This document shows, in pieces, positions 29,527 to 32,551 of a stretch of 64,000 nt of DNA (positions within the stretch are counted from its first letter, which is position 1; each line of letters begins with the position of its first letter). Source of the stretch: an uncultured Lacinutrix sp. (GTDB lineage: Bacteria > Bacteroidota > Bacteroidia > Flavobacteriales > Flavobacteriaceae); the NCBI GenBank assembly GCA_937129145.1, contig CAKZMU010000009.1, positions 80,551-144,550 on the forward strand. Reading direction: 5' to 3'. The notes beneath the pieces are model-generated. The model did not search any database and was not told the origin of the DNA. It saw nothing but the letters and a program-made list of their open reading frames with translations. The translations under genes were made by a program, and so were the position numbers.

Positions 29527-29529
29527 AAT

Positions 29530-29613
29530 GGGAACTCGTCAACGTTGGAGAGTTGGTGCAGATTGTAAACCTGTTGCTTAAATGCTAAGAAAGTTCGAAT
29601 CTTTCAGTTCCCA
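29530..29613 (+). tRNA. tRNA-Tyr(GTA), class II (long variable arm)
   Basis: Acceptor GGGAACT/AGTTCCC, anticodon loop ttGTAaa, variable stem-loop cttaAATGCtaag, T-arm GAAAGttcgaatCTTTC; one A·C mismatch in the anticodon stem. Confidence 0.7.
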
Positions 29614-29627
29614 CAAATAAATAGATT

Positions 29628-29700
29628 GACAAGGTGGCTGAACGGTTAAGGCAACAGACTGCAAATCTGTTTTTTGTGAGTTCAAATCTCACCCTTGTCT
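29628..29700 (+). tRNA. tRNA-Cys(GCA)
   Basis: Acceptor GACAAGG/CCTTGTC, anticodon arm ACAGActGCAaaTCTGT, T-arm GTGAGttcaaatCTCAC. Confidence 0.85.
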
Positions 29701-29706
29701 CAAAAT

Positions 29707-29779
29707 AGTATCGTAGCTCAATGGCTAGAGCGCTCGGTTGTCTCCCGAGAAGTTGCGGGTTCGAATCTCGTCGGTACTG
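29707..29779 (+). tRNA. tRNA-Asp(GTC), noncanonical (A1:U72, U37)
   Basis: Acceptor AGTATCG/CGGTACT, D arm GCTCaatggctaGAGC, anticodon arm CTCGGttGTCtcCCGAG, T-arm GCGGGttcgaatCTCGT. Confidence 0.65.
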
Positions 29780-29780
29780 C

Positions 29781-29844
29781 GAAGCAGTTTAAGAGATGAG
29801 AAGTTTACCCTGAGCGTAGTCGAAGGGAATCTTGTCGGTACTGC
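29781..29844 (+). repeat. 46-nt conserved spacer module (…AAGAGATGAGAAGTTTAccCTGAGCGtAGTCGAAGg) followed by an 18-nt direct repeat (17/18 identical) of the tRNA-Asp T-loop-to-3'-end segment
   Basis: gaatctCgtcggtactgc at 29763–29780 recurs as gaatctTgtcggtactgc at 29827–29844; the intervening module is ~85–90% identical to the one at 30183–30226. Confidence 0.8.
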
Positions 29845-29848
29845 AAAT

Positions 29849-29931
29849 CTGGGAGGATAATCCCGAAGGTTCGGGAGTGGTTTACTCGCTTTGGAAGCGA
29901 GAGGTTGTAGGTTCAAATCCTACCTCTCAGA
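29849..29931 (+). tRNA. tRNA-Pro(TGG)-like gene with an aberrant 29-nt D region; possibly a pseudogene
   Basis: Acceptor CTGGGAG/CTCTCAG (one G·U pair), perfect anticodon arm CTCGCttTGGaaGCGAG, perfect T arm GTAGGttcaaatCCTAC. The D region is ~10 nt too long and contains the hairpin TCCCGAaggtTCGGGA. Confidence 0.45.
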
Positions 29932-29937
29932 CAAAAT

Positions 29938-30009
29938 ACTCCGTTAGTCAAATGGCTAAGACGCCTGACTTTCTATCAGGAATTAAGGGTTCAATTCCCT
30001 TACGGAGTA
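29938..30009 (+). tRNA. tRNA-Glu(TTC), noncanonical (A1:U72, U37)
   Basis: Acceptor ACTCCGT/ACGGAGT, anticodon arm CCTGActTTCtaTCAGG, T arm AAGGGttcaattCCCTT. Confidence 0.65.
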
Positions 30010-30014
30010 CACAT

Positions 30015-30100
30015 TGAGATATAGCTTAATTGGTAGAGCGTCGCTCTCATAAGGCGAATGGTTTAGGTTCTCCCGATAGTTATCGGGACTAATATCTCAA
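30015..30100 (+). tRNA. tRNA-Met/Ile2(CAT)-like gene with an 18-nt hairpin insertion in the T loop; possibly a pseudogene
   Basis: Acceptor TGAGATA/TATCTCA, D arm GCTTaattggtaGAGC, anticodon arm TCGCTctCATaaGGCGA. The T region is TTAG-gttc-[TCCCGATAgtTATCGGGA]-CTAA. Confidence 0.45.
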
Positions 30101-30106
30101 CAACAC

Positions 30107-30179
30107 GCAGGAATGGCGAAACGGCAAACGCACTCGACTTAGAATCGAGAAACTGGGAGTTCGAATCTCTCTTCCTGTA
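30107..30179 (+). tRNA. Class-I (short variable arm) tRNA with Leu anticodon TAG
   Basis: Acceptor GCAGGAA/TTCCTGT, D arm GCGaaacggcaaaCGC, anticodon arm CTCGActTAGaaTCGAG, variable region aaact, T arm GGGAGttcgaatCTCTC, A73. Confidence 0.55.
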
Positions 30180-30182
30180 CGA

Positions 30183-30246
30183 AGTAAGGAAAGAGATGAG
30201 AAGTTTATGCTGAGCGAAGTCGAAGTGAATCTCTCTTCCTGTACGA
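30183..30246 (+). repeat. 44-nt conserved spacer module followed by a perfect 20-nt direct repeat of the upstream tRNA's T-loop-to-3'-end segment
   Basis: gaatctctcttcctgtacga at 30163–30182 and again at 30227–30246; the module agtaaggaAAGAGATGAGAAGTTTAtgCTGAGCGaAGTCGAAGt is homologous to 29781–29826. Confidence 0.85.
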
Positions 30247-30247
30247 T

Positions 30248-30321
30248 GCTCCACTAGCCCAAATGGAAGAGGCAACAGTTTTAAGCGCTGTTAAGTCCAA
30301 GTTCGAATCTTGGGTGGAGTA
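30248..30321 (+). tRNA. Class-I tRNA with Leu anticodon TAA
   Basis: Acceptor GCTCCAC/GTGGAGT (G1·U72), anticodon arm ACAGTttTAAgcGCTGT, variable region taagt, T arm CCAAGttcgaatCTTGG, A73. Confidence 0.5.
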
Positions 30322-30327
30322 CAAAAT

Positions 30328-30451
30328 AAGCTTATGGTGTAATGGAAAGCACACAAGGTTTAGCTCATGCATATCTATTTCAAGAAATAGGTATTCGTGA
30401 ATGCAAAGCATTTCGAACCTTGGAGTATGGGTTCAAGTCCTATTAAGCTTA
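30328..30451 (+). tRNA. 124-nt tRNA-like gene carrying a ~52-nt structured insertion in the anticodon loop
   Basis: Acceptor AAGCTTA/TAAGCTT, D arm GTGTaatggaaaGCAC, anticodon stem CAAGG…CCTTG separated by 59 nt, T arm ATGGGttcaagtCCTAT. Mature anticodon TAG if spliced at 37/38, TCG if at 33/34. Confidence 0.45.
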
Positions 30452-30456
30452 CAAAA

Positions 30457-30527
30457 TAACCTGTGGTGTAACGGTAACACTCAAGATTTTGATTCTTGTA
30501 TTATAGGTTCGAATCCTATCAGGTTAT
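30457..30527 (+). tRNA. tRNA-Gln(TTG)
   Basis: U1:A72 acceptor TAACCTG/CAGGTTA, D arm GTGTaacggtaACAC, anticodon arm CAAGAttTTGatTCTTG, T arm ATAGGttcgaatCCTAT. Confidence 0.8.
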
Positions 30528-30535
30528 CAAAAAAT

Positions 30536-30608
30536 GGAACAGTAGCAAAGTTGGTCAATGCGTCGGACTGAAAATCTGAAAATACAGGTTCAATTCCTGT
30601 CTGTTCCA
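30536..30608 (+). tRNA. tRNA-Phe(GAA)
   Basis: Acceptor GGAACAG/CTGTTCC, anticodon arm TCGGActGAAaaTCTGA, T arm ACAGGttcaattCCTGT. Confidence 0.85.
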
Positions 30609-30621
30609 CTAAAATTAAAGA

Positions 30622-30639: not shown

Positions 30640-30767
30640 ATAATATCAAGCTGGTCTTGTTGAGTGTTTCGGTATAGCACTATTGTATAAATCGTTGCAG
30701 AAATGCATCATGAGTTTATGTTCAACTAGACTTGAAGGTTTTGACTGTTAACCAAAAAATGGTCTCC

Positions 30768-30843
30768 CCCTATAGGTCGTGGGTTCGACTCCCACTTATC
30801 CCAATTGGGATAGTAGTTCAGTGGTTAGAACAATAGGATGTAG
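30768..30843 (+). tRNA. Apparently circularly permuted tRNA gene: 3' half (nt 38–73), 3-nt linker, then 5' half (nt 1–37); the mature anticodon would be GTA
   Basis: 3' half: c-CCTAT-aggtc-GTGGGttcgactCCCAC-TTATCCC-a. Linker att. 5' half: GGGATAG-ta-GTTCagtggttaGAAC-a-ATAGG-atGTAg. The acceptor pairs over 7 bp and the anticodon stem ATAGG/CCTAT pairs over 5 bp. Confidence 0.45.
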
Positions 30844-30888
30844 GTGTTGCTGGTTCGATTCCAGTCGTTTGCTTGGAGAAATTCCTTG

Positions 30889-30948
30889 GCAATAGTAGCT
30901 CAATTGGTAGAGCACTGCACTTTTAATGCAGGTTTGGACTCAAAATCC
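30889..30948 (+). pseudogene. Truncated tRNA-Lys(TTT)-like 5' portion with a degenerate T arm and no 3' acceptor strand
   Basis: GCAATAG-ta-GCTCaattggtaGAGC-a-CTGCActTTTaaTGCAG-gttt, then only a 3-bp GGA/TCC stem; no complementary 3' acceptor strand nearby. Confidence 0.4.
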
Positions 30949-30988
30949 ACAATCAAAAGCCCATCATCTTTTAAAACTGATGACCAAC

Positions 30989-31005
30989 GCAGATTGTCAT
31001 TCTGC
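30989..31005 (+). other. Isolated anticodon-arm-like hairpin GCAGAttGTCatTCTGC, a tRNA fragment
   Basis: A 5-bp stem with a 7-nt loop reading as an Asp GTC anticodon. The nearby ggtcgtggga at 31081 resembles the T-arm of the permuted gene. Confidence 0.35.
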
Positions 31006-31450
31006 TCAACAAAAATGACAAAAATAGTAGATTGCAAGTCGGCTTTAGATTCCTGCATTACTGACGCATCGGTCAACACTGGTCGTGGGAATGACAAAAC
31101 TAGAGCAGTCTTGAAAGTGCCTTGAAATACTGATTTTTAATAGTAGAAGTGGTTACTGTTTTGTAATAAGAAATTATATAAATCTGATTATCGATTCATA
31201 TAGTTGTCACAATACTCAGCACTAATTACAGGCACTATTAATATGAGTATTTCCGCACCAGAAAAATGATTTGCTTTCTGCTATTTTTAACAATGAAGAG
31301 ATATAAAAATATACTTCAATTAATGATGAACTCGTCATTGTTTTTTGAAGTTGGTAAGCCTTCCGTTACAAGAATTGCCGCCACGCTCAAAAATGGGCAA
31401 CAATAAATGTTTAATCTTCCTGAAATAAATTCAGGATAAAAAAATTAGAA

Positions 31451-32551
31451 ATGATGAAACGAGTAAGAATTAATGTTGGAGAAGTAGGATTGGTTTTCAA
31501 AAGAGGTGATTACAAAAGAGTAATTACTCAAGGAAAAAACTGGTTAGGGTTTGGCGAGCGTGTTTTAACCTATAACTTAGCTCATGCTTTCGTTGCTCCA
31601 AAAACACTAGAACTCTTGCTAAAAGACGAGGTGTTGGAGGCAATGTTAGACATTATTGAAGTAAAGGATGGTGAACTTGTATTGGTTTACGAAAAAGGGA
31701 GCTTTAAAACTGTTTTAACTGCTGGTCGTTATGTGTACTGGAAGGGTTTGATTAATCGTGAATATACACGCGTTGATTTAAGCAAAATTTATATTACTGA
31801 AAACATTGACAAAGCATTGTTTAGTAACTATGAATTAAGCAAATACATTCGAGTTTTTGAAGTAGCTGCTTACGAAAAAGCTATCCTTTTGGTAGATGAT
31901 GTATATACAAAGACGCTTGACGGCGGTACATACCGATTCTGGAGAAATGATACCACAATTAAAATTGCTAAGGCTGATTTACGTCAGTTACAACTAGAAA
32001 TTGCTGGACAAGAATTGTTAACTAAAGATAAAGCAGCTATTCGTATCAACTTTTACACACAGTATAAAGTAACAGATATTGAAAAGGCTTTACTAGGAAA
32101 CAAAGATTATGAAAAGCAATTATACATTGCTATGCAATTGGTATTGCGCGCTTACATTGGTACTTACACACTAGATGAATTGCTAGAGCGTAAAGAAAAC
32201 ATTGCAGAAGCTGTATTTGAAGATGTTAAAGCAAGTGCATCAAAATTAGGTGTAAGCGTTTTAAGCTGCGGTATTAGAGATGTGATTTTAACCGGAGATA
32301 TGAAAGAGATTATGAACCAGGTTTTAGTTGCACAAAAGAAAGCGCAAGCAAATACAATTACAAGACGTGAAGAAACAGCTTCTACTCGTAGCTTGCTAAA
32401 TACGGCAAAGTTGATGGAAGAGAATAACATGCTGTACAAGCTAAAAGAAATGGAGTATGTTGAAAAAATCGCTGAGAAAATTGGTGAAATCACAGTCTCA
32501 GGTAATGGTGGAATGGTAACACAATTGAAAGAGATTTTCTCTGGAAAATAA
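31451..32551 (+). CDS. SPFH/band-7 (slipin-like) domain protein
   Basis: 366 aa; C-terminal SPFH-like region with a coiled coil (VLVAQKKAQANTITRREETA…). Confidence 0.65.
   Translation: MMKRVRINVGEVGLVFKRGDYKRVITQGKNWLGFGERVLTYNLAHAFVAPKTLELLLKDEVLEAMLDIIEVKDGELVLVYEKGSFKTVLTAGRYVYWKGLINREYTRVDLSKIYITENIDKALFSNYELSKYIRVFEVAAYEKAILLVDDVYTKTLDGGTYRFWRNDTTIKIAKADLRQLQLEIAGQELLTKDKAAIRINFYTQYKVTDIEKALLGNKDYEKQLYIAMQLVLRAYIGTYTLDELLERKENIAEAVFEDVKASASKLGVSVLSCGIRDVILTGDMKEIMNQVLVAQKKAQANTITRREETASTRSLLNTAKLMEENNMLYKLKEMEYVEKIAEKIGEITVSGNGGMVTQLKEIFSGK

Follow-up and report, generated by a model that had tools for sequence, protein, structure and literature searches.

YrlA RNAs are bound by Ro60 (Rsr) and carry the motif GNCGAAN0-1G near their 5' end, and their genes share a strand with rsr and lie no more than 4 kb from it (PMC4201824). 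Their tRNA-like domain consists of a T arm, a closed acceptor stem-loop and a D arm, shows covariation between positions 15 and 48, and is modified by TruB and DusA (PMC4201824). YrlA was likened to circularly permuted tRNAs by its authors, and an origin from a dimeric tRNA was proposed (PMC4201824; bioRxiv 10.1101/312249). The YrlA of M. smegmatis, which has a 7-bp stem, is cleaved by RNase P and receives CCA, and the Y RNAs of D. radiodurans are co-transcribed with a tRNA (PMC4201824). Here, we analyzed a 64,000-nt stretch of DNA from an uncultured Lacinutrix sp. (contig CAKZMU010000009.1), called the window below and providing the coordinates for all positions. We report that positions 30769-30837 probably form the first of two tRNA-like modules within a conserved structured RNA of ~644 nt, which is encoded on the + strand upstream of a gene of the slipin family (SPFH/Band 7) and possibly continues to the start codon of that gene at 31451.

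GOLLD and ROOL, two other large structured RNAs, are typically phage-associated. Genuine tRNAs embedded in GOLLD are on record, in papers that do not mention a closed permuted version (PMC12286853; PMC12990946). In Cyanidioschyzon merolae, other algae and one archaeon, permuted tRNA genes yield mature decoding tRNAs through a circular intermediate that depends on a bulge-helix-bulge (BHB) motif (PMC3978253; PMC3218864). Among these systems, the tRNA-like domain of YrlA is the closest known relative of the module. Both have an anticodon-type stem formed by an entering and a leaving strand, a variable loop, a T arm, a hairpin-closed acceptor stem of variable length and a D arm, together with conserved elbow nucleotides and a 15:48 pair that covaries between G:C and A:U. 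In contrast to YrlA, which is an RNA of its own of ~100-150 nt, the module is part of an RNA of ~640 nt that contains 2-4 such modules in tandem and large 5' and 3' domains, and the invariant neighbor of this RNA is the slipin gene.

The elements of module 1 are as follows.
30769-30773, + strand: "anticodon-stem" strand CCTAT, pairing with 30833-30837
30774-30778, + strand: variable-loop equivalent AGGTC, in which C30778 is position 48
30779-30795, + strand: T arm GTGGG-TTCGACT-CCCAC
30796-30813, + strand: hairpin-closed "acceptor" stem TTATCCC-AATT-GGGATAG, with strands 30796-30802 (TTATCCC) and 30807-30813 (GGGATAG) and loop 30803-30806 (AATT)
30814-30832, + strand: U8 and A9, D arm GTTC-AGTGGTTA-GAAC (30816-30831) and A26
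30833-30837, + strand: "anticodon-stem" strand ATAGG, the partner of 30769-30773

An initial annotation of this DNA had read the site as a permuted tRNA gene, with a 3' half preceding a short linker and a 5' half. The sequence reads exactly in this order, and all the pairings that had been listed hold; orthologs keep every helix through compensatory changes. A short linker does lie at the acceptor ends, but the A that had been assigned as discriminator and the three nucleotides ATT that follow it make up the 4-nt hairpin loop AATT.

To compare the window with its relatives, we used 80 genome loci collected around orthologs of the Band_7 gene, which served as the anchor, and 59 further metagenome contigs collected separately by a scan with a two-part 5' motif of the large RNA; the counts given below cover Flavobacteriaceae-like lineages. 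The module was present at the same locus in 78 of the 80 Flavobacteriaceae genomes and in the 59 metagenome contigs, and its position was kept across genera whose slipin proteins are 35-92% identical to that of the window. The alignment of module 1 was positional, not structure-fitted: each ortholog was divided by position into 12 nt preceding the T arm, the T arm itself, 6 nt at either end of the hairpin between the two arms, the D arm and another 8 nt downstream of it, and MAFFT was used to align the pieces. In the resulting set of 61 distinct sequences, standard pairs occupied 98.1% of 1220 cells, compared to 37-50% in controls in which the partners were slid by 1-3 columns. Compensatory (both-side) changes were found in 15 of the 20 pairs, and none of 500 shuffles matched the observed values.

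Each helix contributed to this signal. The T arm was 100% paired with covariation in four of its five pairs, all six outer pairs of the closed "acceptor" stem covaried, and the D arm was 99.6% paired, with covariation in two of its four pairs and a conserved GG in its loop. The five pairs of the "anticodon" stem were formed in 99.3% of cases and showed double changes at three positions (for example, AU in 39 and GC in 22 sequences at one of them), giving variants such as CTAT/ATAG, CTGT/ACAG and CAAT/ATTG. The closed hairpin occurred among orthologs as TTATCC/GGATAA, CTTCCC/GGGAAG, CGGGAC/GTCCCG or CATAAA/TTTATG, with a stem of 4-8 bp and a loop of 3-22 nt. The tertiary (Levitt) pair 48:15 was never mismatched, occurring as C:G in 58 sequences and as U:A in 3. 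We also searched for the layout with a strict pattern in which all four stems had to be perfect: a T stem of 5 bp with the loop TTCRANY, a hairpin-closed stem of 7 bp, a D stem of 4 bp whose loop contains GG, and a closing stem of 5 bp. This site was the sole match in the window, and no match was obtained in 300 first-order Markov randomisations searched on both strands. What selection preserves is evidently the set of helices, the elbow nucleotides and the 15:48 pair, and not the anticodon or the acceptor end.

A second module follows directly, with these elements.
30838-30848, + strand: linker between the modules, containing the would-be anticodon ATGTAG; its last bases are the variable loop of module 2
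30848 and 30903, + strand: T30848 (position 48 of module 2) and its partner A30903 (position 15)
30849-30865, + strand: T arm GCTGG-TTCGATT-CCAGT
30866-30895, + strand: hairpin-closed acceptor-like stem; the window sequence forms five of its seven outer pairs
30896-30914, + strand: U8 and A9, D arm GCTC-AATTGGTA-GAGC (30898-30913) and A26
30915-30931, + strand: anticodon-like arm CTGCA-CTTTTAA-TGCAG
30935-30949, + strand: hairpin TGGA-CTCAAAA-TCCA, at the degenerate T-arm position of the ancestral tRNA and variable among orthologs

In module 2 (30848-30931), the point of permutation is the variable loop, and the anticodon-like arm is closed within the module. In 49 sequences, its T arm and D arm were 100% paired, all seven pairs of its closed stem showed covariation, and the anticodon-like arm was 99.6% paired with covariation in four of five pairs and a loop of the form CUNNNAA, in which NNN is variable. 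The 48:15 pair was C:G in 43 sequences and U:A in 5, with 1 mismatch. Overall, the module was 97% paired, with compensatory changes in 14 of 21 pairs, and the linker that precedes it varied between 8 and 14 nt among relatives. The alignments identify modules 1 and 2 as real, selected folds of a tRNA-like, L-shaped type.

The origin from tandem tRNAs suggested in the initial annotation is likely right, as remnants of tRNAs in normal order can be recognized at 30807-30873 and 30889-30955 and module 2 is tRNA-Lys-like. By blastn, ~40 nt of its 5' half are 82-92% identical to tRNA-Lys genes of neighboring arrays. The Rfam tRNA match at 30889-30955 (30.5 bits) takes the hairpin 30935-30949 as T arm, and at 30807-30873 the tRNA model scored 26.2 bits (below 29) and left the acceptor strands unpaired. 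A normal-order tRNA gene or pseudogene at the latter position was rejected because ARAGORN made no call and the score was subthreshold. The number of tRNA-like modules per large RNA ranged from 2 to 4: most relatives had two T arms, 15 had three, and 3 had four, and the versions of Tenacibaculum and Polaribacter included class II-like units with long variable arms. Therefore, the middle of the large RNA is best described as a cassette region of tRNA-like units flanked by constant 5' and 3' domains.

In several relatives (L-numbers label the orthologous loci compared with the window), ARAGORN called "tRNAs" of 85-96 nt (Lys, Leu, Phe, Ile, Arg) inside the large RNA. These calls span a strand of the closed hairpin, the D arm, the anticodon-like arm and the next T arm, and are probably annotation artefacts (L031:5338-5433, L059:5414-5499, L061:5319-5409, L062:5443-5529, L071:5463-5554, L043:5610-5700 and L060:5552-5647).

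The modules lie within a larger conserved RNA, whose remaining parts are listed here.
30645-31288, + strand: core block of the large structured RNA, 644 nt, from ATCAAGCTGGTCTTGTTGAGTGTTTC to TTCCGCACCAGAAAAATGATTTGCTTTCTGCTATTTTT
30646-30735, + strand: 5' domain, a three-way junction in which P1 (30646-30655/30725-30735) encloses P2 (30664-30668/30676-30680) and P3/P3a (P3, 30685-30692/30714-30721)
30696-30707, + strand: P3a, TGCA-GAAA-TGCA
30743-30764, + strand: P4, hairpin GACTGT/ATGGTC with a conserved loop ..CCAAAAA..; 6 of 6 stem pairs covary
30951-31288, + strand: 3' domain (~330 nt) with a U-rich end, including a hairpin (30962-30965/30979-30982)
31034-31040/31268-31274 and 31108-31111/31264-31267, + strand: long-range helices of the 3' domain
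31124-31131/31246-31253 and 31149-31160/31218-31229, + strand: further long-range helices of the 3' domain
31289-31450, + strand: spacer between the RNA and the slipin gene, in which conserved hairpins continue as far as the start codon

The conservation profile showed a non-coding block from ~30640 to ~31290, with further patches reaching the slipin start codon. The first 26 nt of the RNA (ATCAAGC..GTCTTGTTG.GTGTTTC) occurred once in 78 of the 80 genome loci, the other two being without upstream DNA, and a 3' motif (TTCCGT...GATGATTTGC...TTTT) was found 534-702 nt (median, 610) after the start motif in 68 genome loci. Likewise, blastn with 30700-30960 returned a match at the same position upstream of the Band_7 gene in nearly all 80 loci. 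RNAalifold predicted 38 pairs, 25 of them with compensatory changes, for the 5' region (P1-P3a, P4 and the first T arm; 54 sequences), and 48 pairs, 36 with compensatory changes, for the 3' domain (28 sequences); the minimum free energy fold of the single sequence was uninformative (z = -1.7). A protein-coding block was rejected because the indels are not multiples of three. A short open reading frame (ORF) in the spacer was also dismissed as not conserved, since the ATG-started frame of the window hits an early stop in L015 when read by eye. Rfam 15 scans at E<=10 over three window ranges and eleven orthologous loci gave no family for the 5' or the 3' domain and only partial YrlA and weak tRNA matches. 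As no prior description was found in Rfam 15 or in the openly accessible literature searched, the large RNA is apparently undescribed.

The large RNA is flanked by two features.
~29528-30609, + strand: upstream tRNA array, with seven intact genes (29628-30609) plus degenerate ones
30536-30609, + strand: tRNA-Phe(gaa), the last gene of the array (ARAGORN; Rfam tRNA, 72.6 bits)
31451-32551, + strand: SPFH/Band 7 ("slipin family") gene (Pfam Band_7, 8.9e-29)

In the window, the tRNA array sits between an ORF with TPR repeats and the Band_7/SPFH gene; by Pfam, the neighbors are TPR, CMD, OsmC and RecJ upstream and Band_7, M28 peptidase and UDG downstream. In all 115 placeable loci, the slipin start codon was located on the same strand 531-1171 nt (median, 737) past the start of the large RNA, and this arrangement held even where the slipin was only 35-55% identical to that of the window. 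The upstream tRNA array was of variable size, from none to 18 genes, and in ~26 contigs the 3 kb preceding the large RNA were free of tRNAs. Because these contigs still have the slipin gene, the invariant partner of the large RNA across the compared loci is the slipin gene and not the tRNA array. A functional or transcriptional link between the two is the interpretation we favor, with some reserve.

Several observations bear on transcription. In at least 14 related loci, the large RNA begins 0-18 nt past the 3' end of a tRNA, which argues for a shared transcript with a 5' end produced by tRNA 3' processing. The Bacteroidetes -7 box TAnnTTTG was found within 120 nt upstream of the slipin ATG in 2 of 115 loci and upstream of the RNA start in 3 of 115, for a background of 4.6%, and it was absent from the + strand of the window between 28602 and 34569. 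The scarcity of such boxes fits a single transcription unit, as weak evidence. No canonical terminator hairpin was found before the U tract 31284-31288 in a scan for sigma-70 promoters and terminators, a type of scan that is uninformative for Bacteroidota. The spacer 31289-31450 may share a transcript with the large RNA.

The slipin protein (31451-32551) is made of three N-terminal five-stranded beta modules followed by the SPFH core and a long helix. The only solved structure that aligned across all these parts was that of the major vault protein. A search for homologs of the protein listed relatives with at least 76% identity, all of them too close to carry the link between RNA and slipin gene into other orders.

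We propose that the canonical T arm of each module stacks on the hairpin-closed "acceptor" stem and that the D arm can dock on the T loop, which would create an elbow; the "anticodon stem" of module 1, formed by the entering and leaving strands, is the connection to the rest of the RNA. The modules are probably fossils of tandem tRNA genes of the adjacent array that are now domain-swapped, such that the T arm and 3' acceptor strand of a given unit find their 5' acceptor partner in the unit that follows, and the ancestral middle of the RNA would have consisted of three or more tandem tRNAs. They would not be matured into decoding tRNAs, as closed acceptor ends are expected to prevent maturation or charging. 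The large RNA would be made on the same transcript as the upstream tRNAs, acquire its 5' end by tRNA 3' processing and probably be followed by read-through into the slipin gene. By analogy with the YrlA domain and the tRNAs embedded in GOLLD, the modules could function as tRNA mimics that present rigid elbows to tRNA-binding factors or that make architectural contacts, and variants with a 7- to 8-bp stem and a long loop may be nicked by RNase P, as is M. smegmatis YrlA. Three possibilities for the large RNA are that it is a giant leader, that it partners the slipin protein, and that it forms a free-standing assembly. We hold the structural identity of the module and of the large RNA to be very likely correct, and we put forward any specific molecular role only tentatively.

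Some points weigh against this interpretation. The proposal of a tRNA mimic for recognition or architecture is an argument from analogy, and the transcript ends, the processing and the co-transcription are deduced from sequence alone. The absence of TAnnTTTG is weak evidence, as the motif is not above chance in the window overall. Some opening by RNase P of the 7- to 8-bp closed stems, which occur in ~36 of 100 orthologs including the window, is conceivable from the M. smegmatis precedent. Regarding novelty, the large RNA may have been described earlier.

An alternative to a slipin-linked RNA is that the large RNA is a free-standing ornate RNA of the GOLLD/ROOL kind, for example, a homo-oligomer that displays or stores tRNA-like units, its association with the slipin gene being mere synteny. 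The large RNA has traits of this kind, being >500 nt long and multi-domain, rich in covarying helices and adjacent to tRNA islands, and a U-rich tract closes its core block at 31284-31288. As in GOLLD, which also occurs in tRNA arrays, tRNA units are built in between the 5' and 3' domains. Moreover, GOLLD itself is found next to the large RNA. The Rfam model (RF02032) matched L010:708-1210, between tRNA-Phe and the large RNA, with 129.9 bits (gathering score, 150) and an E value of 3.8e-34, and nhmmer detected a ~900-nt GOLLD directly upstream of the large RNA, always in that slot, in 11 genome loci and 3 metagenome contigs. These 14 loci are from marine Flavobacteriaceae (L010:294-1219, L005, L006, L009, L011, L012, L017, L020, L021, L022, L080, L084, L087 and L103). 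Thirteen of the 14 copies embed a T arm, a covarying hairpin-closed stem and a D arm (for example, L010:786-870), often with an anticodon-like arm next to them, so that GOLLD here holds, besides the embedded tRNAs already reported (PMC12286853; PMC12990946), the same closed module. The window has no GOLLD and shows a 35-nt gap in that slot.

In contrast, the GOLLD and ROOL models gave no match to the large RNA at E<=10 in the window and the orthologous loci, and the 5' motif had 0 matches in 2.9 million viral contigs. The large RNA occupies a fixed chromosomal site, not a phage or prophage, that is syntenic and family-wide, and its units are closed permuted mimics rather than releasable tRNAs. 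All 115 placeable loci, even those without tRNAs, have the slipin gene downstream on the strand of the RNA, conserved hairpins extend to the start codon, and no canonical terminator hairpin was found. We thus consider a free-standing RNA unlikely, while giving it appreciable weight. A phage origin of the window as a whole was rejected separately, as blastn against 50,697 phage records retrieved generic tRNA similarity to the array only and none for the element. The ORFs of the window are of a Bacteroidota chromosome type (BatA/BatD, type IX secretion system sorting domains, RecJ, an AddAB-like helicase-nuclease, PdxA), its G+C content is ~34%, and the closest genome by the neighboring Band_7 protein is that of Gaetbulibacter sp. 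S0825 (92%), followed by Jejuia, Wocania and Winogradskyella.

A bona fide YrlA Y RNA, in which the module would be the effector domain and Ro60 (Rsr), encoded elsewhere, would be tethered to an exoribonuclease, is improbable. Rfam YrlA (RF02553), the only named non-tRNA Rfam family that matched the module, aligned to 30771-30835 in the same element order with 32.9 bits (E 3.7e-5 in an 861-nt search), and eleven orthologs scored 28.4-43.5 bits, with E values down to 2.5e-6. The Levitt covariation of the module is that known from YrlA, and the D. radiodurans case offers a precedent for co-transcription of a Y RNA with a tRNA (PMC4201824). However, the gathering score of 69 was not reached by any sequence, and the alignment in the window spans model positions 23-85, mainly the tRNA-like core. 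The Ro60-binding motif GNCGAAN0-1G was not found in the conserved 5' region, where the nearest string, GACTTGAAGG, is the 3' strand of P1. No TROVE domain, and hence no rsr, was detected by Pfam in 30 ORFs of the 64-kb window, including all 16 of at least 400 amino acids. In addition, the host RNA exceeds a Y RNA in length by a factor of five to six and holds 2-4 modules.

The initial annotation had proposed a circularly permuted tRNA gene with anticodon GTA. From a genuine gene of this kind, for tRNA-Tyr(GUA), the transcript would be made circular through the anticodon loop and then cut in the acceptor loop by RNase P and RNase Z, yielding a decoding tRNA. When the two halves were joined via a 7-nt loop, ARAGORN indeed reported tRNA-Tyr(gta), a flawless cloverleaf with every stem paired, yet it called no tRNA gene in the native order. 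The closed stem of the window reaches 7 bp, the length at which the YrlA of M. smegmatis is cut by RNase P and CCA-tailed (PMC4201824). The module also shares with the permuted genes of C. merolae, other algae and one archaeon the 3' half in first place, a short linker at the acceptor ends and a full cloverleaf (PMC3978253; PMC3218864).

We surveyed the anticodon positions and the closed-stem length in 100 orthologs from genomes and metagenomes. The bases after the 5' anticodon-stem strand comprised 65 distinct 7-mers, with GTA at the position of the window in 2 orthologs only. The closed stem was shorter than 7 bp in 64 orthologs, whereas 21, including the window, had 7-8 bp with a short loop, and 15 had 7-8 bp with an A/U-rich loop of 10-22 nt. 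Module 1 lacks an encoded CCA at its acceptor end, where the loop of the window is just 4 nt. In contrast to the algal genes, its flanks differ among orthologs and display no conserved pairing or BHB by eye, in the absence of a formal BHB search or folding. Bacterial tRNA-Tyr is not of the class I scaffold type that the joined halves form, and related arrays hold a normal class II tRNA-Tyr(gta). Furthermore, no tRNA splicing endonuclease has been reported in bacteria (bioRxiv 10.1101/312249), and the element is internal to a larger conserved fold. The variable anticodon positions and the short closed stems show that the module is not a gene for a decoding tRNA, and we regard the contrary as highly improbable. 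We found no homology that would make module 1 kin to the class I "tRNA-Tyr(ata)" genes of related arrays. The view that no bacterial case of such an architecture was known is out of date, given the circularly permuted, closed-acceptor domain of YrlA Y RNAs (PMC4201824; bioRxiv 10.1101/312249).

The possibility, named beforehand as a refutation of the permuted gene, that the two halves are debris of different decaying tandem tRNA copies brought together by chance has next to no probability: the module does descend from tandem tRNAs and the array of the window contains degenerate tRNAs (29871-29931 and 30020-30078) and an interrupted tRNA-Arg (30328-30455), but decay would lose pairing, whereas the comparison of orthologs shows a module kept at the same position across genera with compensatory changes in every helix and in the tertiary pair, which excludes the decay of tandem pseudogenes.

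We also compared the module with tmRNA. Like the module, tmRNA mimics tRNA by means of a T arm and an acceptor-type helix, and the gene order is permuted in some tmRNA lineages. The acceptor end of a tmRNA is open and bears CCA, and the molecule, which also exists in two-piece (permuted) forms, includes a tag reading frame and pseudoknots. This candidate was rejected, as ARAGORN found no tmRNA and the Rfam tmRNA match in the window scored 13.4 bits for the T arm only; over the window and the orthologs, the Rfam tmRNA models matched the T arm only, with 13-25 bits versus 47.

The tRNA array and its counterparts in relatives contain other elements. Two inserts of ~65 nt, at 29781-29846 and 30181-30247, lie directly after tRNA-Asp(gtc) and tRNA-Leu(tag), respectively, and share a core, AGAGATGAGAAGTTTAyyCTGAGCGwAGTCGAAGkGAATCT, behind which the final 17-20 nt of the preceding tRNA are repeated. 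The core is also present in the arrays of about ten other Flavobacteriaceae loci, and Rfam gave no match for the insert. Candidate explanations are a small mobile insertion, the scar of an integration event and an element for 3' processing. At 30328-30455, the two halves of a tRNA-Arg(ACG), nearly identical to L003:5012-5084, are split by a hairpin-forming anticodon-loop insert of ~57 nt. ARAGORN does not call this gene, which may be disrupted or contain an unusual mini-intron; a group I intron would be far longer than the insert. Of the degenerate tRNAs at 29871-29931 and 30020-30078, one has no D arm (36.3 bits) and one is truncated (30.6 bits), and ~29531-29612 resembles, by eye only, what would be left of a class II tRNA-Tyr(gta), the gene at the head of the array in relatives. 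The array of the window is partly decayed compared to those of relatives, which have up to 18 genes.

Between the array and the large RNA, ~30 loci from Aquimarina and others contain further conserved non-coding cassettes of ~300 nt (L030:4190-5182 and homologous stretches), which are combined differently in each genome and have no Rfam match, so that the locus looks like an island of structured RNAs. A match to Flavo-1 RNA (RF01705) was obtained upstream of the large RNA in a Tenacibaculum metagenome-assembled genome (L082:3726-3897, - strand; 41.3 bits for a gathering score of 42). Just before tRNA-Phe, related loci have a conserved class I tRNA of 71-72 nt with A34, called Tyr(ata), Phe(aaa) or Asp(atc), which does not occur in the window (L010:141-212, L011:3929-4000, L018:4730-4801, L006:3971-4042 and L022:3976-4048). 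An A at position 34 is an unusual anticodon feature for a bacterial tRNA.

In bacteria, closed-acceptor permuted tRNA mimics are known only as the effector domain of Ro60-bound YrlA RNAs, where their role is unsettled. Here, such a mimic occurs without a Ro60 context, two to four times in tandem, inside a family-wide large RNA and inside local GOLLD copies, which suggests that a domain-swapped tRNA concatemer is a general route by which large RNAs gain tRNA-shaped modules. As tRNA finders make spurious calls inside the large RNA in some genomes, annotation pipelines need a model for it. The locus also provides a chromosomal, tractable system in cultivable marine bacteria (Winogradskyella, Aquimarina, Tenacibaculum) in which to address the association of GOLLD and ROOL with tRNAs.

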